Under the pieces are notes generated by a model. It searched no databases. It saw only the letters and a list, made by a program, of their open reading frames with translations, and was not told where the DNA came from. A stretch of DNA of 64,000 nucleotides from positions 8,257 through 72,256 of the forward strand of contig JBBTWH010000009.1 in assembly GCA_038062835.1 (NCBI GenBank). Direction: 5' to 3'. The position numbers were made by a program, and so were the translations under genes. Source of the DNA: Patescibacteria group bacterium (GTDB lineage Bacteria > Patescibacteriota > Patescibacteriia > SG8-24 > DYFX01). This document shows positions 2,316-40,900 of the stretch, one piece after another (within the stretch, counting starts at the first letter, position 1; each line of letters starts with the position of its first letter).

Positions 2316-3725
2316 TCAGGCCTTCTTGAGCCTGGGGCCTTGCTGCGTGTCCTCGACGATCCATCCCTTGGCCGCGATCTCGCCGCGCAGACGGTCGGAA
2401 GCGGCCCAGTCCTTGGCGTCACGCGCGGCCTGGCGTCCGTCGGCGAGCGCGCGCACGTCGTCGGGAGCTTCGGCGGCGGACGAGCACAGGTCGATGCCGA
2501 ACGTCTCGCCGAGCGCGCGCTCGATGAACGCGCGCGCGGCGGCGGCCGCGACCGGCGTCATGGAACCGTCGTCGAGCGCCCGGTTCGCGGACTTGGCCGC
2601 CTCGTTCACGACGGCGAGCGCCTTGGAGACGTTCATATCCTCATCCATCGCGGCTTCGAACGCCGCATCGTCTGCGGCAGATGCTGCCGAACCGCCGGTG
2701 CCGGCGGAGGCTCCGAGACGCGCCAGGAGGTCGCGATAATACGCGACGGTCTTCTCGGCGGCGTCGAGACCGGAGAGCGTGAAGTTCAGCTGGGTGCGGT
2801 AGTGGGCCGAAAGCAGCAGCCAGCGGACGGCGGCGGCGGAGTGTCCCTTGGCGAGCAGGTCGTTGAGCGTGAAAAAATTCCCTTTTGATTTCGACATCTT
2901 CTCGCCGTCGACGACGAGGTAGGTGACGTGCAGCCAGTGCTTCGAGAAGATCTTGCCGGACGCGCCTTCGGACTGCGCTATCTCGCATTCATGGTGCGGG
3001 AACTTCAGATCCTCGCCGCCGCAGTGCAGGTCGATCGTATCTCCGAGGAACTTCTTCGCCATGGCGGAGCACTCGATGTGCCAGCCTGGGTAGCCGAGGA
3101 TGCCCTGCGGGCCCGTCCATTGCATCACGTGATCAGGGTTGTGGATCCAAAGCGCGAAATCGGCGGGGTGGCGCTTGTCTTCCTTCACTTCCACGCGCGC
3201 GCCGGCCACCAGGTCCTCGACCGTGTTGCCCGAGAGCTTGCCGTAGCCCGGGAACGAAGCGACCGAATAGTAGACGTCGCCCTTCGGCGTGACGTAGGCA
3301 TTGCCTGCCTCGATCAGCTTCTCGATGAGCGCGACCATCTGCGGGATGTGCTCGGTCGCTCGGGGATGCTCTGCCCGCTTGAAGCCGAGCGCGTCAAGAT
3401 CGGCGAAAAAAGCCTTCTCGTAATGGGCCGCGATTCCGGCGGGCGTCCTGCCTTCTCGCCGGGCGGCGACTTCCATCTTGTCCTCGCCCTCGTCGGCGTC
3501 GTTCAGCATGTGCCCGACGTCGGTGATGTTCATGACCAGCTTGACCTTCTCGCCCTTGTGCTCCAAATACCGCCGCAGCAGGTCGACGGTCAGGAATGTC
3601 CTGAGATTTCCGATATGGGCGTCGTGGTAGACGGTCGGGCCGCAGGCGTAGACGGTGATTTCGCGGCCGGTTTCAGGCGGAAAATACCTCTCTTGCCGGC
3701 TCAGCGTGTCATGCAGTTTCAGCAT
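2316..3725 (-). CDS. cysS: cysteine--tRNA ligase
   Basis: Class I aaRS with HIGH motif ([13 protein letters not shown]) and KMSKS (KMSKSKGNF). N-terminus [14 protein letters not shown] aligns to E. coli CysS MLKIFNTLTRQKEE. The track ORF extends to a TTG at 3761. Confidence 0.93.
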
Positions 3726-8897: not shown

Positions 8898-9100
8898 ACT
8901 GAGGACAGTATACCTTATATTCGCCTATTTTCGGCTAACTTGTGGGGATAAGTCGGCGCTCCGGGTCAGTCATCCGTTCGCTGGCGCCGGGAAGAGGAAT
9001 GCCCCTCTTTGAACGGACGCTGCGCGAACGGACGCCTGACCCTCCGCTTTGGAGGAGACGGGGGAGTTGCTATCACCCCGGCGGAGGCCGGGGTCCACGC

Positions 9101-10897: not shown

Positions 10898-11197
10898 TCA
10901 GGGCCCAGCACCGCACGCGAAGCTATAAAGGTCTTTCCACTCCGGATTTTCTTTTTCTACCAACTCGATCTTCCAACGTCGTTTCCAATTCTTCAGTTGT
11001 TTTTCCCGTGCGATCGCGCTCAGCACGTCCGTCGCGCATTCGTACCAGACGAGGCTTGTGATGTCGTACTGCGAGGTATGGCTGTCGGCCGCGTGTGTCC
11101 GATGCTCGTAGACCCTCTTCACAAGGTTTGATGTGACTCCGATGTACAACGCGCCACCTTTCCGATTCGCCAGGATATAGACGTAGTAGTTTCGCAT
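10898..11197 (-). CDS. GIY-YIG nuclease domain protein (99 aa)
   Basis: YVYILANRKGGALYIGVTSNLVKRVYEH...REKQLKNWKR matches the GIY-YIG / UPF0213 signature. Confidence 0.8.
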   Translation of the reverse strand: MRNYYVYILANRKGGALYIGVTSNLVKRVYEHRTHAADSHTSQYDITSLVWYECATDVLSAIAREKQLKNWKRRWKIELVEKENPEWKDLYSFACGAGP

Positions 11198-11246
11198 TTG
11201 GTACTGGGCCCTGAATCAAGTTCAGGGCGACAGTACTTTTACTGGC

Positions 11247-13124
<1,878 letters not shown>

Positions 13125-13158
13125 AGTTGTTGGTGATTACGGTTCAAGACCCCTCCTG

Positions 13159-13221
13159 CCTCCCCTTTCAGGGGAGGAGTATCCCGGATTCTCCCCCTCT
13201 GAAAGAGGGGGCAGGGGGAGT
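13159..13221. repeat. GC-rich palindromic element: hairpin cctcccctttcaggggagg plus hairpin ccccctctgaaagaggggg with tail cagggggagt
   Basis: Intergenic between the hsp20 stop and the dnaK start. It shares the core agagggggcagggggagt with the copies at 14615 and 15191. Confidence 0.7.
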
Positions 13222-13230
13222 CTTAAAGGA

Positions 13231-13635
13231 TCATTTGTTCTTCACTTCAATCTTGATCTCCTTCTTCTCGCCTTCATCCGCTTTCGGAATCGTGATGCGC
13301 AGCAGCCCGTGCCGGGATTCCGCTTCGGCCTTCTCGCCGATGACGGCCGCGGGGAGCGCGACCTTGCGCTGGAAGGCGCCGTAGCGGACTTCCTTGTAGA
13401 GATAGTCCTGTTCGTCGACTTCGGTGCGATGCTCGCTCTTGCCGCGGAGGGTCAGCACGCCGCCTTCGACGGTGACTTCGACGTCCTTGGGATCGACGCC
13501 CGCCAGCGGCGTCTCGACGATGACGTTCTCGCCGTCCTCATACACGTCGACCGCGGGAATGAACCCCTTCGACATATCCGCAAGCGCGCGCTCCGCGTCG
13601 TCGAACGGGTTTTGGTTTTTGGGGAGGAGGGACAT
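13231..13635 (-). CDS. Hsp20/alpha-crystallin family small heat-shock protein
   Basis: Alpha-crystallin domain (VDVYEDGENVIVETPLAGVDPKDVEVTVEGGVLTLRGK...HGLLRITIPK). ATG start at MSLLPKNQNPFDD; the track ORF extends to 13680. Confidence 0.85.
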   Translation of the reverse strand: MSLLPKNQNPFDDAERALADMSKGFIPAVDVYEDGENVIVETPLAGVDPKDVEVTVEGGVLTLRGKSEHRTEVDEQDYLYKEVRYGAFQRKVALPAAVIGEKAEAESRHGLLRITIPKADEGEKKEIKIEVKNK

Positions 13636-13639
13636 AGGC

Positions 13640-14227
13640 TTACTGGGATTCGCGCATCTCTTCGCTGTAGAAGTCCTCAACGATTTTTTCCTTAGTCAGA
13701 AAAAGCTTGACCGGCTGTCCAGTGATCTTTTCCCAAATCGCGCGGCCAAACACGTAGAGCACAGAGAGGACACGGAAGAAGAAATAAAGCATGAAGAAGG
13801 CCTGCCAAACGACACCGGGCACACCCAGTACCTTGTCCGGGAACCTCGAGGTCAGCAGGAAGCCCAGCAAGAGAACGACGCTTTCGGCGCTCAGGAACAG
13901 GCCCCAGCGCCGCCCAACCGCTTCCGCAAGAAGAGCCAGCGCGTCCTTGAGCCTGTGGTCAGGCATCGGCACCACCCTATCCTCAGGAAGGCCGTAAAGT
14001 TTCGGGTGCTTGTGTGCGAACTTGAGCATATTTTTTTCCGAACCCGAGGGCATCAAGCTTTTTTCCATGTCAGCCAGAATCGCGTTGTACGCTTCGTTAA
14101 CTTCTTTAAACTTCTTAGGGTCTCCACCCTTGTCGGGATGATGCTTCTTGGCCAACTTTTTGTAGGCCTTCTTGATTTCATCAATCGAGGCTGACGGTTC
14201 AACCTCAAGGACTTCGTGTGGGGTCAT
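13640..14227 (-). CDS. membrane-anchored J-domain protein
   Basis: N-terminal J domain with HPD ([35 protein letters not shown]) and C-terminal hydrophobic helices. Start at 14227; the upstream part of the track ORF is Arg/Pro junk. Confidence 0.75.
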
Positions 14228-14229
14228 AC

Positions 14230-14523
14230 TCACTCCGCCTTCGCCTGGAAGCTGGCGCCGGCCGCTTCGAATTTGACCAGCTTGTTGATGGTCTGGACGG
14301 CGAGCTTCATCGACGTGGCGCCGGATTTGTGCTTGGGGAGGTCGCGGAGGCGGATCTTCTGTTCCTTGGCGCGGTTGCCGTTCTCGTCGACGGCGCGCGA
14401 AGGCACCGTCACGAGCATGTCGGGGTCGAGGCGGAAGAAATTCAGGAAGTTCCCCCACTCCTTGAAGGAGAAGCGGTGGTGCTGGTAGTCGGATTCCCAC
14501 TCGAGATCGCTTTTGAACACCAT
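14230..14523 (-). CDS. hypothetical protein (97 aa)
   Basis: ORF track. Balanced composition. Its stop lies 2 nt before the start of the J-domain gene. Confidence 0.5.
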
Positions 14524-14527
14524 ATGT

Positions 14528-15178
14528 TTATTTGTTCACGATGACTTTAGAGGGCCGGACGACTTTGCCGTTGATCTCGTAACCGGTCTGGACTTCTCGG
14601 AGGATCGTCCCGGAGATAACTCCCCCTGCCCCCTCTTGCTCCAAGAGGGGGGAATCCTCTTCACCGACAGCCTCGTGCCGCATGGGATCGAACTTCTCGC
14701 CGCCGGTCTTGATGGCCGTGAGGCCGAGGTCCTTCATCGCGTCGTCGATCTGCTTCTGGATGAAGCCGACGCCGAGGGCCCAGTTGAGGACCGTCTTATC
14801 CTCGGTCTTGGGCATGTGGCTGACGGCGACGTGGAAGTTGTCGAACACCGGGAGGAACCGCTCGACGACGCGGAGCGTGGCGTATTGGCCCATCTCCATC
14901 CGCTCGCGGGCGACGTCTTTCTGGAGGTTCTGGTAGTCGGCGAGCGCGCGCTTCCAACGCTGCTCCATCTCGTGCAAGGAGACGTCGTTGGAGGGCTGGG
15001 CCCCGGCCTCCGCCGGGGTGACATCAGGGGAAGTACGCTCCACCGAAAGCGCGGTGATGTCGGCGCTGCAGGAGCCGTGCTCCTCGCACCAAGCTTCGCA
15101 CTTCTTCATCGTCTCCTCGTCGCGGTAGTGGAAGCCGCATTCGGGACAGGCGTAAGTTTTCTGTTCTTCGTCGGGCAT
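14528..15178 (-). CDS. grpE: nucleotide exchange factor GrpE with N-terminal zinc-ribbon extension
   Basis: GrpE coiled-coil and C-terminal beta domain (ALADYQNLQKDVARERMEM...NGKVVRPSKVIVNK). Start MPDEEQKTYACPECGFHYRDEETMKKCEAWCEEHGSC carries four or five Cys; ATG at 15178. The track ORF extends to 15418. Confidence 0.85.
   Translation of the reverse strand: MPDEEQKTYACPECGFHYRDEETMKKCEAWCEEHGSCSADITALSVERTSPDVTPAEAGAQPSNDVSLHEMEQRWKRALADYQNLQKDVARERMEMGQYATLRVVERFLPVFDNFHVAVSHMPKTEDKTVLNWALGVGFIQKQIDDAMKDLGLTAIKTGGEKFDPMRHEAVGEEDSPLLEQEGAGGVISGTILREVQTGYEINGKVVRPSKVIVNK
14615..14652. repeat. copy of the GC-rich palindromic element (gataactccccctgccccctcttgctccaagagggggg) lying in-frame inside grpE
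   Basis: Near-identical (about 36 nt) to the reverse complement of the 15191 copy. Encodes LLEQEGAGGVIS in the GrpE C-terminal region. Confidence 0.7.
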
Positions 15179-15190
15179 AGTTTTCTTTTT

Positions 15191-15283
15191 CCCCCTCTTG
15201 AAGCAAGAGGGGGCAGGGGGAGTTATCTTCCGAGGGGATAACCCCTCCGGCCTTTGGCCACCTCCCCTTGCTTCAAGGGGAGG
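15191..15283. repeat. GC-rich palindromic element cluster: ccccctcttgaagcaagaggggg + cagggggagttatc; gaggggataacccctc; cctccccttgcttcaaggggagg
   Basis: Three GC hairpins in the 107-bp hrcA-grpE spacer. None has a T-tract. Confidence 0.7.
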
Positions 15284-15285
15284 AT

Positions 15286-15987
15286 CTAATGTCGGAGCGC
15301 TTCTAGTGCGGTCTCGAGGAGAGCGACGCCGGAGTCGTAGTCCATGCGCATCGGGCCGAGGATTCCCAGGACTCCGTAGGTCTCCCCCATCGGCGCGCGG
15401 CCGATGACCAGGCCGCACTCCTGTCCGAACGGGTTCTGGCTGCCGATGAGGACTGCGACAGAAGGCGCGACGTGCGGATACATCTTCTCCATCGTCTCGT
15501 CGAGATGATCGAGCACCTTCGACATCACGGCGACCTGCGAGAACTGGCGGAACTCCGGTTTGGCGAAGAGGTTCGAGAGGCCGGTGTAGTAGACGTTGCG
15601 CGGGGCGAAGGCGACGAGCGCGGACTCCTGCGCGAGTTCCGCGAGCGCCTTGGCGGCGCGGCGGAGGCGTTCGGCGTCCTCGAAGGATTCGTGGACGGCA
15701 TCGCTCATCGCTTCGACGACGTCTTCCGTCGGCGGCTTCTTCTCGAGGAAGTGGGAGACGTAGTAGCGATAGCCCTTTTCGGAAGGCGCGCGGCCCGCGG
15801 AAGTGTGCGGTTGGAGCAGGTAGCCGAGCTCTTCGAGGGCGGCGAGTTCGTTCCTGATCGTGGCCGAGGAAACGTCGAGGCCGGACTCTTCAGCTAGCCA
15901 CGCCGAACCTACCGGCTCGGCGGATTTCACGTACCGCCGGACGGTCAGCTTCAAAAGCGTCTCCTTGCGGGGGTCGAGGGTTTCCAT
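15286..15987 (-). CDS. hrcA: heat-inducible transcription repressor HrcA (short, 233 aa)
   Basis: N-terminal wHTH LTVRRYVKSAEPVGSAWLAEESGLDVSSATIRNELAALEELGYL is typical of HrcA. A CIRCE operator lies immediately upstream. Confidence 0.85.
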   Translation of the reverse strand: METLDPRKETLLKLTVRRYVKSAEPVGSAWLAEESGLDVSSATIRNELAALEELGYLLQPHTSAGRAPSEKGYRYYVSHFLEKKPPTEDVVEAMSDAVHESFEDAERLRRAAKALAELAQESALVAFAPRNVYYTGLSNLFAKPEFRQFSQVAVMSKVLDHLDETMEKMYPHVAPSVAVLIGSQNPFGQECGLVIGRAPMGETYGVLGILGPMRMDYDSGVALLETALEALRH

Positions 15988-15991
15988 AGCG

Positions 15992-16018
15992 TTAGCAATC
16001 CCATCTTACGAGTGCTAA
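15992..16018. promoter_or_regulatory. CIRCE operator (TTAGCAATC-N9-GAGTGCTAA)
   Basis: One mismatch to the consensus TTAGCACTC-N9-GAGTGCTAA. It sits 5 bp upstream of the hrcA start. Confidence 0.8.
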
Positions 16019-32093: not shown

Positions 32094-32168
32094 CGGAATG
32101 TAGCTCAGCGGTAGAGCGCTCGCTTCGGGTGCGAGAGGCCGCAGGTTCAATCCCTGTCATTCCGACCA
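32094..32168 (+). tRNA. tRNA-Pro (anticodon CGG)
   Basis: Acceptor CGGAATG/CATTCCG. D-arm GCTCAGCGGTAGAGC. Anticodon loop TTCGGGT with G37. T-arm GCAGGTTCAATCCTGT (wobble). CCA is encoded. Confidence 0.85.
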
Positions 32169-37950: not shown

Positions 37951-40900
37951 TCAGCGGTAGGTCACGGTGATGTCGTCGAGCGTCGGCGTCACCGAGGTAT
38001 CGCCCGTCGCGAGCAGGGCGCGGTACTGGAGATAGCGGCTGACGGGGGCAGTGATGGCCGTGCCGGTGGCGACGGTCATCTCGGAGGTGAACGGCGACCA
38101 GCCGCCGTCCGGCGTCGGCGTGTTGCCGGTCCGGATGGCGACGGTCAGCGTGGTCATGGCCGGAATCGACCTGTTCCAAAACGAGACCATCGGCGTCGAG
38201 GTCGCCACGTCCATGTCGAGAATGGAGGAGAGGAAGGTACCGGTGGGCTGGTAGGTCGGCGGGTCTTTCAATAAGATTCCGAGCTTGCCGCAGATCCAAC
38301 CGTCGGTCGGGGCTTCGACGGTGATGCCGTAGAGGTGGCGGGTGGTCGGTGACGTGAAGCTCGTCCAGTTCGCGCCGTCCCACTGAATGATGGCGCCGGA
38401 GTCGCCGTTCGCCCAAGCTTCCGAGGAGGATCTCGCCTCCACCGCGTTCAGTGACGAGACGACGGGGCTCGTGACGGTCGACCAGAGCGTGCCGTTCCAG
38501 CGGACGATGACGCCGTTCGCGCCGACCGCCCAGCACGAGGTCGAAGACAGGCAATGGACGGCATTCAGGCGGCTGGCCGTCGGCGAGGTTTGCGTCGCCC
38601 ACAACGCGCCGTTCCAGCTGACGATGGTGCCTGAATCGCCGACGGCCCAACCAGTGACGGCATCGACCATCCAAACGCCGCGAAGCGCGTTGCCGGTCGG
38701 AGAAATCGCCGGAAGCCAGGCGACGCCGTTCCAATGGACGATAGTCCCGCCCTGGCCGACGGCAGCGCCGAAGGCGGATGAGGTCATCGATACCGAGAAG
38801 AGGTCGTTGCCCGTCGGACTGGACTGCACGGCCCAGGGCGCGTTGTTAAAGCGGATGATTTCTCCTTGATTGCCGACAGCGAAGGCGAGCGCCGACGAGA
38901 CCGCGTCGACGCCGTTCAGGTTACGGATCGTCGGCGAGGACGTGGCGGACCACGTGAGTCCGTCGTAGTGGATGATGGTGCCGACGCGGCCGACGGCCCA
39001 GACGTCCGAAGCGCCGGTGCCGTCGGTGTCATAGAGGTCCTGCGCGGTGACTGCGCTGTGGATCATGCGCACTTCCTGCAGGATGGAGGTCTGATACGAC
39101 TGCGAGTTGGTGAAGGTCACACGGTATTGGAGATAGCGGTTCGGCGGCGCCGTGATGGTCGCGCCGCCCGCGTCCGAATATTCGGAACTCCAGGCCGACC
39201 AGCTGCCGTCGGGCGTCGGCGTGGGGCCGCTGCGCACGGCCAGGGTCAGCGACGCGAACGGCTGGGTGGTGTAATCCCAGGCGATGGAGTTCCAGACGGC
39301 GGTCGAGGAGCCGCTGTCCACGACGGTGCTCGTGAAATACGCCGGCGACGTATAGAAGGCGGTGTAGTGATAGATGGCGCCGCCCTCGCCGACGGCCCAT
39401 CCATCCGTCGGCGTCATCAGGAAGACGCTCTGCACCAGCGGGTTGGACTGGTTGGCGAAGACGTACTGGGACCAGACGGCGCCGTCCCAATGCAGGAAGG
39501 TCTGTTCGATGCCGACCGCCCAGCACTCGGTCGAAGAGAGGCAGTGGACGTCGCGAAGCTCGTTGGGCGTATTGCTCGTCACGATATTCCATGCCGTGCC
39601 GTTCCAATGGCGCGTCATGCCGCCTGCGCCCACGGCGACGGCGAAGCTCGCGTCCACCATCGAGACGCCGTAGAAGGCGTTGGTGGTGCCCGATGTCATC
39701 GTCGACCAGGTCGTGCCGTTATATCGGATGATGGTGCCGTTACGGCCGACGGCGATGCAGTCGCTGGCGCTGGCGCAGCTCACGCTCTCCAGATCCTTGT
39801 TGACGGGACTCGTCATCGTCGCCCAGCTGGCGCCGTTCCACCTCAGGATCACGCCTGACTTGCCGACGGCGAAGGCCAGGCTGGCCGAGATGACGTCGAC
39901 GGCGAACAGGTCGAGGCCGGTCGGGCTCGAGAAGTTCGCCCAGCTGGCGCCGTTCCAACGGATGATGCGACCGTTCAGGCCCACGGCCCAGGCATCGGAG
40001 GTCGACGAAAAGTCGACGCCCTGCAAGGTATCGGTCGTCGGCGAGGCGAAGGTCGACCAGTTGGAGCCGTCGAAGCGCAGGATGTTACCGCCCTGGCCGA
40101 CGGACCACCCGTCGGAGGCCGAGGTCAGGACGGTATCGTACATCGTGGCGGACGTCGGGGCGTCGTAGGTGATCGTGATGTTGTTGAGCGACGGCGTGAC
40201 CTGCGTGTTGGTCGTCGACATCGTCAGGCGATACTGGATGTACCGGCTGTCGGCGTTCGCGATGACCGACCCGAACGGATCCGTCACTTCCCCGCTGAAG
40301 GCGGTCCAGCTGACGTCCGGCACGGCCACGTTGCCGGTGCGGACCGCGACCGTGAGGTCCGTGCCGCTGTCGAGGTCCTCGTTCCAGAAGAGCCGGTCCC
40401 AATTCGCGCTGGCCGTCGCGTCGAAGACATTCGAGGTGTAGGTGCCGGAGGTCGGATAGTTGGAACCGTATTTCAGGAAGGTCGGACCGGCGCCGACGGC
40501 GTATCCCTCGCCGGCCGACACCATATCGACCGCGTTGAGCTGGTTGACGGTGGGCGAAGCGACCGACGCCCAGCTCGTCCCGTTCCAATGGATGACCGCG
40601 CCAGTCACGCCGACGGCCGTACAGAACGACGCGGAGACGCAATCGACGTCAAGAAGGCTTACGGCCACCGGAGACGACACCGTGTTCCAGGCCGTGCCGT
40701 TGAAGCGCCGGATGACGCCGTTGTTGCCGACGATCCAGCCGTCGGTCGCCGAGACCATCTCGACGCCGTTCCATTGATGCGACCCAGTATCCGTATGAAG
40801 GCTCCAGGCCGTGCCGTTCCAGCGCCTGATCTCGCCAGCGGTCCCGACGACCCAGCAGTCCGAGGCCGTGACGCAGGTCACCGCGTACCACACTTGGCTG

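Follow-up and report, generated by a model that had tools for sequence, protein, structure and literature searches.

Probable intrastrand-triplex-type repeats in a Patescibacterium heat-shock operon, one of them in frame within grpE

BoxC, PIT and TM repeats have been known since the 1990s, and to our knowledge they have neither an established function nor an established mode of spread. Another group of short hairpin repeats, the Rickettsia palindromic elements (RPE), was reportedly described by Ogata et al. in 2000; like intragenic REPs, and like the repeats described here, they can lie in frame in conserved genes whose product is retained. The class represented by BoxC, PIT elements and TM_ECO was described in E. 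coli, and many further variants are contained in the ITxF survey of Holder et al. (2015; PMC4666352), which cites Hoyne, Maher and colleagues (2000) and Bachellier and colleagues for the E. coli elements. These E. coli elements are reported between genes only, and the TM_ECO triplex was seen in vitro and not in in vivo footprinting (PMC4666352). Different repeats at about the same site of orthologous genes have been described for recB in Xanthomonas (Di Nocera et al. 2013, PMC3733652).

We analysed a 64-kb stretch of DNA (the window) whose source organism is a groundwater Patescibacterium. The 18-mer AGAGGGGGCAGGGGGAGT occurs in it as three exact copies, at 13204-13221 (+), 14619-14636 (-) and 15206-15223 (+), against a chance level of 0.06 copies per shuffle (at least three copies in 0 of 100 shuffles), and all three lie within the minus-strand operon hrcA-grpE-orf97-J-domain gene-hsp20-dnaK. 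The gene names given in a preliminary description of this locus agree with Pfam for HrcA, GrpE and Hsp20 and with the sequence for DnaK. That description had listed three copies of the element (13193-13221, 15191-15227 and, inverted, 14615-14652), the coordinates and sequences of which all hold. It had also placed a second hairpin, regarded as a separate type, beside each of the intergenic copies; these hairpins are present (13159-13177 and 15261-15283), but they are units of the same kind, inverted and with mirror tails of their own, and the intergenic sites are therefore inverted dimers. Subtypes H1 and H2 are paired in this way in the two largest spacers of the operon, which is CIRCE/HrcA-controlled, and a solo H1 unit lies in grpE (Table 1). 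The unit ahead of grpE and the unit within it belong to a 41-nt inverted repeat (15188-15228 and 14614-14654) that is 95% complementary, with 39 of 41 positions matching. On the mRNA strand the U4 hairpin ends 12 nt upstream of the grpE ATG, and U5 begins 3 nt past the hrcA stop. Hairpins of the form CCYCCYCT..AGRGGRGG number five in the window, every one inside 13159-15283, and the motif was not found in the remaining ~62 kb. All five units crowd into 2.1 kb of a single operon, which is odd for a repeat that disperses freely and could reflect local duplication or local function.

Table 1. Repeat units and associated features, in window coordinates
Feature	Position	Strand or location	Description
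U1, H2 type	13149-13177	-	CCTCCCCT-gaa-AGGGGAGG-ca-GGAGGGGT (pyrimidine arm-loop-purine arm-linker-mirror tail); perfect 7-triad motif
U2, H1 type	13193-13221	+	CCCCCTCT-gaa-AGAGGGGG-ca-GGGGGAGT
Inverted dimer A (U1 + U2)	13143-13227	hsp20-dnaK spacer	Single ~85-nt near-perfect hairpin fold, -60.7 kcal/mol, z = -5.8
grpE CDS, 216 aa	14528-15178	-	PF01025, 1.1e-33; N-terminal zinc-ribbon-like module, long helix, insert-bearing beta domain
U3, H1 type, in frame within grpE	14615-14652	-	Coding strand CCCCCCTCTTG-gag-CAAGAGGGGG-ca-GGGGGAGTTATC
U4, H1 type	15191-15227	+	CCCCCTCTTG-aag-CAAGAGGGGG-ca-GGGGGAGTTATC
U5, H2 type	15237-15283	-	Minus strand CCTCCCCTTG-aag-CAAGGGGAGG-TGGCCAAAGGCC-GGAGGGGTTATC
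CIRCE operator, outside the repeat family	15992-16018	-	TTAGCACTC-N9-GATTGCTAA, 1 mismatch

In every unit, 29-47 nt long, a homopyrimidine arm is followed by a loop of 3-5 nt, the homopurine complement of that arm, a short linker and a G-rich tail mirroring the purine arm. The tail CAGGGGGAGT(TA) had been noticed before as something that follows the hairpin; it does follow it, but as a mirrored version of the purine arm and not as a mere appendage. Because the tail mirrors the purine arm, the units have the intrastrand-triplex (BoxC/PIT/TM) design rather than that of RPE or MITE elements. The ITxF definition of such a motif combines a Watson-Crick hairpin stem of 6-15 nt with an antiparallel third block that follows the purine arm on its 3' side and may contain one mismatch, both loops being 1-6 nt; the triads accepted for the class II purine motif were G.G:C, A.A:T and T.A:T. 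All five units have the perfect stem of the class II motif, at 8-10 bp. An ITxF-like scan of the 64 kb returned exactly five perfect 7-triad motifs, all at 13149-15283, against none in 100 Markov-1 randomisations, and visual inspection of the units lengthens the match to 8-9 triads. The loops of U1-U4 (3-5 and 2-4 nt) fall within the limit of 1-6 nt, and the 12-nt linker of U5, itself a mini-hairpin, falls beyond it; linkers of the U5 type recur in loci L125, L127 and L128, and the linker hairpin covaries in L127 and L128. The complementary strand of the units has the pyrimidine-motif design. Judged from these sequences, a single DNA strand could fold as a hairpin with the tail filling the major groove through triads. 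A G-quadruplex was considered and rejected: each unit has two G5 runs only, and the G-runs of a dimer lie on opposite strands, so that a short-loop intramolecular quadruplex cannot be drawn. No unit was matched by Rfam at gathering thresholds, which found two tRNAs only in the window, and a permissive search gave only sub-threshold animal miRNA-precursor models, a spurious result that reflects the long hairpin. A literature search with the literal element sequence gave no match.

With TM_ECO, BoxC and PIT elements the units share the pyrimidine arm, purine arm and mirror purine tail of the class II purine motif, a G/C-rich composition with a length of ~37 nt, conserved stems with variable loops, two subtypes often paired as inverted repeats, the lack of mobility genes among the neighbouring ORFs scanned and a patchy distribution among relatives (PMC4666352). 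The units agree with the published description in their design, in having two subtypes paired in inverted orientation and in linkers of the CCG/TTA type (PMC4666352). The sequence differs, however (CCCCCTCTT.. here, CCCTCNCCC.. in TM_ECO), and the TM_ECO consensus CCCTCNCCC-N3-6-GGGNGAGGG-N3-GGGNGAGGG finds no match in the window. As second loop the units have 2 nt or a 12-nt mini-hairpin, and TM_ECO has 3 nt. Unlike TM_ECO, the 18-mer found in this Patescibacterium is present in many non-proteobacterial phyla; and whereas TM_ECO is reported as always intergenic (PMC4666352), U3 lies in frame in grpE, an essential-type gene, and related units lie in PolA of L011. H-DNA has the same mirror symmetry of purine tracts and the same base triads, but it arises from duplex under supercoiling and requires no hairpin arm on the same strand, whereas here the three blocks are on one strand. 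The family is thus a new member of a known repeat type, and its uncommon feature is the location inside a gene.

The family extends far beyond this genome. Over 116 loci, spread across many phyla, contain AGAGGGGGCAGGGGGAGT; a complementary arm lies at most 10 nt upstream of the 18-mer in ~70 of 115 copies, and TA follows directly 3' in 55. The same loci contain 183 pyrimidine/purine hairpins after exclusion of those containing the query. Perfect triad-compatible mirror tails accompany 54 of the 183. Permuting the tails (500 trials) left 9.5 on average and never more than 19, and a direct-repeat control gave 11. Tails change in step with the arms across about 40 distinct arm variants (for example, GAGGGGG with GGGGGAG, GGGGAGG with GGAGGGG and AGAGGGG with GGGGTGT). 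Because arm and tail change together across these variants, the third block appears to be under constraint, and the arm-tail covariation that characterises an intrastrand triplex motif is present; it argues for the fold at the level of sequence. Within one genome, stems are conserved and loops variable. Locus L036 holds at least 15 units in 8 kb, and the in-frame units in PolA of L011, mentioned above, belong to another Hainich Patescibacterium. Coding status of all 117 element copies from other genomes was read from spanning open frames, which are unreliable in GC-rich DNA, and is put to no quantitative use. The same design, and even the identical 18-mer, therefore spans many phyla and is also present in Patescibacteria, with their reduced genomes.

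Within grpE, U3 encodes SPLLEQEGAGGVIS, residues 176-189 of the protein. Relative to the nearest empty orthologue, 14 codons replace five, a net gain of nine residues where about ten had been estimated, and at the nucleotide level 39 nt stand in place of 12 nt without target-site duplication. The closest orthologues (90-92% core identity) lack both the element and the residues, and the six nearest are all empty in the alignment and the core tree. In a lineage further removed, the same element is displaced by one codon, and the sister of that lineage, 94% identical to it, is empty. The element was gained at least twice, in different sub-lineages and one codon apart, with 12 or 9 nt giving way to 39 or 36 nt at the junctions, again with no target duplication. 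Four other hairpin sequences fill the same grpE loop in other relatives. Microhomology between a GAAGA(A/G)G flank and the purine arm was tried as the cause of this hot spot; it is possible for the triplex element but fails for the unrelated hairpins in the loop, and we did not adopt it. The loop measures 18-20 residues in 62 of 75 parsed homologues (typically 19-20) and 28 in the GrpE of the window. An AF2 model shows the insert as a loop with pLDDT 70-79, flanked by strands 168-174 and 191-197 (pLDDT >90), and the insert site is a surface loop of a beta-hairpin that is hypervariable in this clade. Since an identical GrpE protein is encoded on six contigs from several assemblies (DNA was available for four of the six, from three ENA assemblies and one NCBI MAG), the insert is not an assembly artefact. 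Taken together, these comparisons indicate that the grpE copy is a true in-frame insertion, as the preliminary description had proposed.

We propose that the five units belong to the G/C-rich intrastrand triplex motif class and spread and inserted as follows, a reading to which we give a probability of about 0.7. The units would be non-autonomous, structure-prone DNA, of which an existing copy is reproduced in permissive sites, probably by template switching or repair at stalled forks or else by some single-strand DNA enzyme. The copy in grpE would most likely have had as its template the inverted unit at a distance of 533 nt (39 of 41 positions matching), and would persist because the loop tolerates extra residues rather than for heat-shock control. 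In transcripts, the intergenic dimers would form very stable stem-loops that at most modulate mRNA stability or processing in the operon.

Other explanations start from the same facts. That the extra GrpE residues are an ancestral loop which merely resembles the intergenic repeat could appeal to the variable loop length of the family; the nucleotide match of the in-gene to the intergenic copy, the empty sites in the six nearest orthologues and the narrow range of loop lengths in most parsed homologues refute it in practice. A more serious alternative is that the units are cis-acting RNA stem-loops that serve in protection or processing of the operon's polycistronic mRNA, for example through 3'-end protection or RNase III cleavage, and that the in-gene copy is kept for pairing with the 5' UTR and control of grpE. 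In support of this idea, RNA folding, suggested earlier as a check for the operon transcript, gave spacer structures far better than those of shuffled sequences (-58.5 kcal/mol, z = -4.4; -60.7 kcal/mol, z = -5.8), and both the MFE and the centroid fold of 14560-15295, from upstream of the hrcA stop to the 3' part of grpE, pair the 5'-UTR copy with the in-gene copy in a predicted 41-bp long-range RNA duplex. Structured repeats of some sort occupy the hsp20-dnaK or hrcA-grpE spacers of most relatives, REP elements are known mRNA stabilisers (PMC3733652), and the distant relatives L125, L127 and L128 have units of the same architecture upstream of grpE, which could have been retained by selection. 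However, the repeats at these spacers are mutually unrelated in sequence, the hrcA-grpE spacer is missing from L005 and L130 and the hsp20-dnaK spacer is almost absent from L125, and the in-gene copy of L008 has no complementary partner within 12.5 kb. An RNA hairpin, moreover, needs no mirror tail, RNA forms no purine-motif triplexes, and PIT elements were inactive as promoter or terminator in E. coli (PMC4666352). The earlier view that the units are not classical terminators is borne out by the lack of T-tracts and by a scan that predicted no terminator-like or promoter-like site at the spacers. On balance we regard a cis-acting RNA function as unlikely. That the hairpin upstream of grpE is an RNA thermometer masking the ribosome-binding site, or that the inverted repeats are operators of HrcA or another regulator, is highly improbable. 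The purine arms (AAGAGGGGG, AAGGGGAGG) do resemble Shine-Dalgarno sequences, in L125 and L128 as in the window a hairpin ends 8-13 nt ahead of the grpE start codon, and the locus is a heat-shock operon; but the 10-bp G/C-rich stems (-16 to -23 kcal/mol) are far too stable for mild heat-shock melting, the GAGG-ATG spacing of 12-15 nt in the window is too long, and the spacer is missing in close relatives. A canonical CIRCE, the only one in the window, already lies directly upstream of hrcA and overlaps a promoter-like site (16031-16003); the units do not match its consensus, TTAGCACTC-N9-GAGTGCTAA, and the element occurs in many unrelated contexts, with a CIRCE nearby in only 1 of 116 loci. Because of the CIRCE upstream of hrcA and the other or absent repeats in relatives' spacers, a heat-shock-specific role is not supported, and the locus does not point to a new regulatory system.

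Movement by a dedicated transposase, the gene for which would lie elsewhere in the genome (RAYT, IS200-IS605-like Y1 or other), which would make the units REP/REPIN or MITE-type elements, has a little less in its favour than an RNA function and seems improbable. Like REPINs, the units are short imperfect palindromes that often form intergenic inverted doublets, two ~35-nt units in one long hairpin; the absence of target-site duplication at the grpE junctions fits single-strand Y1 transposition, some lineages have many copies per genome (the L036 cluster, for example), and intragenic REPs are documented (PMC3733652). Yet RPE and REP families have CGTC or GTAG end tags and no mirror purine tail, and the ends of U1-U5 (..GGGGGAGT(TA/C), CCCCC..) have no GTAG/CTAC and no CGTC/GACG. 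REPINs differ further in that the halves of the doublets here are different subtypes (H1 and H2), and neither a transposase nor a RAYT was found among 27 scanned ORFs of the window or the precomputed gene calls of the 20.7-kb locus L001. Mobility genes have never been found near TM_ECO (PMC4666352), 9-12 nt are replaced at the grpE junctions rather than cleanly integrated into, and the pattern of conserved stems and variable loops within one genome also speaks against this alternative. RPE-1, at 100-150 bp, is longer than any unit. The analogy with Rickettsia palindromic elements drawn in the preliminary description stands for the behaviour, short selfish hairpin DNA tolerated in a protein loop, but the class is neither RPE nor MITE, since the design is that of an intrastrand triplex.

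GrpE tolerates peptide segments derived from repeat DNA, both in one beta-hairpin loop and in the N-terminal linker. Filled and empty sites in a conserved gene provide readable insertion junctions, so the mechanism of insertion can be tested. Given that the element arrived in the grpE loop on at least two independent occasions, and that four or more other hairpins occupy that loop elsewhere, it is conceivable, although doubtful, that structure-directed insertion repeatedly targets the same few grpE codons and that triplex and other hairpin repeats colonise genes of Patescibacteria in the manner of RPE. Were this so, the arm-tail covariation across phyla would imply that what is recognised and copied is the folded triplex of single-stranded DNA itself, and comparison of filled with empty grpE sites would provide the first natural junctions for movement of BoxC-type elements, by replacement without target duplication. 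A metagenome scan for more relatives of this grpE returned 13 loci, mostly already in our set. Among the scanned ORFs and gene calls, a small GIY-YIG ORF located between dnaK and dnaJ was the sole nuclease-like gene.

The window derives from a Patescibacterium of Hainich groundwater, and a GrpE identical to its own is present on ENA contigs Hain_H41 and in NCBI GCA_964357585.1. Hairpins of the form CCYCCYCT..AGRGGRGG occur five times in these 64 kb, all at 13159-15283 in the heat-shock operon (see table). The 18-mer AGAGGGGGCAGGGGGAGT is found in three exact copies against 0.06 expected, and everything that the preliminary description reported of the repeat family at this locus was present; the observation is real. 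Read from the C-rich arm, each unit consists of a pyrimidine arm, a short loop, a purine arm complementary to the first, a linker (2-4 nt, in one unit 12 nt) and a G-rich tail that mirrors the purine arm instead of complementing it. Two subtypes can be distinguished: H1 units read ..AAGAGGGGG-CA-GGGGGAGTT.. and H2 units ..AAGGGGAGG-CA (or a longer linker)-GGAGGGGT(T)... Both intergenic sites are inverted dimers, the one in the hsp20-dnaK spacer folding into a single 85-nt hairpin, and the hrcA-grpE copy and the copy inside grpE are 95% complementary over an inverted repeat of 41 nt. The 'second hairpins' described beside the intergenic copies exist but are not a separate type: they follow the same plan with tails of their own, and are thus such units themselves, placed in inverted orientation. 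A scan by the published rules for intrastrand triplex motifs (ITxF) gave a total of five perfect 7-triad motifs for the window, each within the operon, and none in 100 randomised sequences.

In kind the element is not new: it is one of the intrastrand triplex repeats, which were already known. Work on E. coli has described this design under the names potential intrastrand triplex (PIT) elements and BoxC, and Holder et al. surveyed it in 5,246 genomes in 2015 (PMC4666352). The E. coli motif is about 37 nt long and belongs to the class II purine type. It has conserved stems and variable loops and occurs as two subtypes, often in inverted-repeat pairs; it forms a stable triplex in vitro and gives no triplex footprint in vivo, has neither promoter nor terminator activity, is strictly intergenic, lacks mobility genes among its neighbours and is associated with local genome variability (PMC4666352). 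In RNA, purine-motif triplexes do not form, whereas pyrimidine-motif ones can (PMC4666352). Although the window units share the PIT/BoxC design, they fail the TM_ECO consensus, and the GTAG and CGTC tags of the REP and RPE superfamilies are missing from them. We found no paper describing triplex motifs inside genes or in Patescibacteria within the limited literature covered. What goes beyond the published description is a unit copy within a conserved gene, the repeated, independent filling of one GrpE loop, and arm-tail covariation across phyla.

Alignment identifies the grpE copy as an in-frame insertion, as had been proposed. Among 34 aligned proteins, the window reads ..GEED-SPLLEQEGAGGVIS-GT.., whereas its nearest relatives (core identity 92% for the homologues P0005 and P0016, 91% for P0006 and 90% for P0002) read ..GEED-GGKPP-GS... 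In the DNA, 12 nt are replaced by 39 nt, and a flanking direct repeat is absent. The segment from HEA to GY measures 18-20 residues in 62 of 75 homologues, compared with 28 in the window. An AlphaFold2 model (mean pLDDT 84.7), which matches solved GrpE structures, places residues 176-189 in a loop that connects two strands in the C-terminal beta domain, with a lower pLDDT of 70-79.

Searching one genome per species, we found the 18-mer at more than 116 loci; by record titles, the hosts among the matches listed include Delta- and Gammaproteobacteria, Nitrospirae, Omnitrophota, Planctomycetes, Acidobacteriota, Bacteroidales, cyanobacteria and several Patescibacteria. Flanking sequences keep the hairpin-plus-tail form, with invariant stems and variable loops even inside one genome. 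Because an exact-match search favours identity, the design was tested on hairpins without the query 18-mer, namely 183 unique pyrimidine/purine hairpins from the same loci. A tail triad-compatible at every position lay within 14 nt in 54 of them, compared with a mean of 9.5 and a maximum of 19 when tails were permuted (500 trials) and with 11 for direct repeats. About 40 distinct arm sequences each had their own mirror tail. When DNA is copied in the ordinary way, by base pairing, direct or inverted repeats result rather than mirror repeats, and the arm-tail relation thus speaks for a constraint acting on a three-stranded fold. In another Hainich Patescibacterium (L011, 425-3367), DNA polymerase I carries in-frame units of this triplex-type family at about residues 335-365, in the linker joining the 5'-nuclease and 3'-5' exonuclease domains, and at about residues 905-925, inside the polymerase domain. 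A Candidatus Uhrbacteria contig (JACPJN010000008.1) holds hairpin-plus-mirror-tail units of several subtypes, at least 15 in its 8 kb, a density far above that of the window. Contigs of two different MAGs (L080, 36-104; L093, 36-53) start with an identical 35 nt and the element and then diverge, suggesting that these repeats cause breaks in assemblies. Downstream of the L080 element come a TTGACA-type promoter and a perfect CIRCE.

In a more distant lineage, the same H1 element occupies grpE at locus L008 (82% core identity), in the same orientation and one codon off, with a different loop and flanks; in its sister L129, at 94% identity, the site is empty. In a neighbour-joining tree (without support values), the two filled genes fall in separate sub-clades, each amid empty relatives, so two gains, or a transfer, are more parsimonious than many precise losses. 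Unrelated hairpins sit in this loop elsewhere (see table). As the elements differ, the hot spot is most simply explained by the loop's tolerance of insertions, with a preference of the insertion process for a certain structure or sequence as another possibility. Of 41 positions compared between the grpE unit and the unit 533 nt upstream, 39 agree, among them TTATC, five bases outside the triplex blocks; with the unit near dnaK, the grpE unit has just 19 nt in common. This near-full match fits local templating, and we infer a mode of spread in which the grpE copy would have been templated locally in inverted orientation, for example by strand switching at a stalled fork.

Any function of the units is inferred. 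Several findings count against a dedicated heat-shock role: the operon has its own CIRCE, L005 and L130 are without any hrcA-grpE spacer, the hsp20-dnaK spacer is nearly missing in L125, a different repeat of about 95-110 nt lies in one or both spacers of L005, L008, L126, L129 and L130, and the element is near a CIRCE in only 1 of 116 loci among the matches listed. A role at the RNA level is kept alive by the unusual stability of the spacer RNAs, by units of like architecture upstream of grpE in L125, L127 and L128 (including a covarying 12-nt linker hairpin), and by a predicted transcript fold in which 41 bp join the 5'-UTR copy and the in-gene copy, although L008 has no such partner. Neither promoter-like nor terminator-like sites were predicted at internal operon spacers in a scan of the window, in agreement with the earlier view that the intergenic copies are not classical terminators; the interpretation offered there was essentially right. 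The different spacer repeat is an inverted-repeat element of the GTCATCCCGA...TCGGGATGAC type, found in hrcA-grpE and/or hsp20-dnaK spacers.

Features of the heat-shock operon and of related loci (L, loci from other genomes; P, GrpE homologues)
Feature	Locus	Position	Strand	Remark
hrcA	window	15987-15286	-	operon member
grpE	window	15178-14528	-	operon member
conserved 97-aa ORF	window	14523-14230	-	operon member
J-domain protein gene	window	14227-13640	-	operon member
hsp20	window	13635-13231	-	operon member
dnaK	window	13124-11247	-	operon member
CIRCE operator	window	15992-16018		1 mismatch; overlaps promoter-like site directly upstream of hrcA
GGGGTCTGACCCC-gaaa-GGGGTCAGACCC	L125 (and P0004)			unrelated hairpin, same GrpE loop
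AGGGACAGTCCC-tta-GGGACTGTCCCT	L128			unrelated hairpin, same GrpE loop
GCAGGGC-tt-GCCCTGC	L126 (and P0009)			unrelated hairpin, same GrpE loop
degenerate copy	L127			unrelated hairpin, same GrpE loop
GTCATCCCGA...TCGGGATGAC type	L005	7665-7770
GTCATCCCGA...TCGGGATGAC type	L008	5893-5990 and 7970-8065		two copies
GTCATCCCGA...TCGGGATGAC type	L126			upstream of grpE and of dnaK
GTCATCCCGA...TCGGGATGAC type	L129			upstream of grpE
GTCATCCCGA...TCGGGATGAC type	L130	4100-4130

The 97-aa ORF directly after grpE has no Pfam match and is of equal length in L001 (the window's own locus), L005, L007, L008, L126 and L130, which suggests a conserved, uncharacterised operon member. In L130, a 375-aa Abi_C-domain gene of abortive-infection type (2553-3680) lies between this ORF and hsp20. 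Downstream of dnaK, and before dnaJ, is a GIY-YIG nuclease ORF of 99 aa (10898-11197), which an inverted repeat of 28 nt brackets (82% complementary; arms at 10898-10925 and 11187-11214) and which is absent at the corresponding position in L005 and L008; ORF and repeat are possibly a small mobile nuclease cassette. Elsewhere in the window, ARAGORN called a second tRNA-Pro(cgg) of 82 nt at 38047-38128, which shares its anticodon with the tRNA at 32094-32168; the Rfam tRNA model was silent there at gathering score.

A second, plain palindrome family, TCACCCCGGC-GGAG-GCCGGGG, occurs at 14997-15026, in frame in the GrpE N-terminal linker, where it encodes TPAEAGAQ, and just downstream of dnaJ at 9068-9097 (27 of 30 nt matching). 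Since similar segments are common to many orthologues (P0005, P0006, P0009, P0014 and P0019, with the variants VIPAKAGIQ/VIPAEAGAQ in P0011 and P0012), this insertion looks older, judging by the proteins compared. GrpE residues 1-46 (15178-15040) form an N-terminal, zinc-ribbon-like CPxC...C...C module, confidently modelled (pLDDT 89-94), which is absent from the closest orthologue and present in scattered others (P0001-4, P0007, P0008, P0010-12 and P0024); matches to the module only were found on other metagenome contigs (L137-L143).
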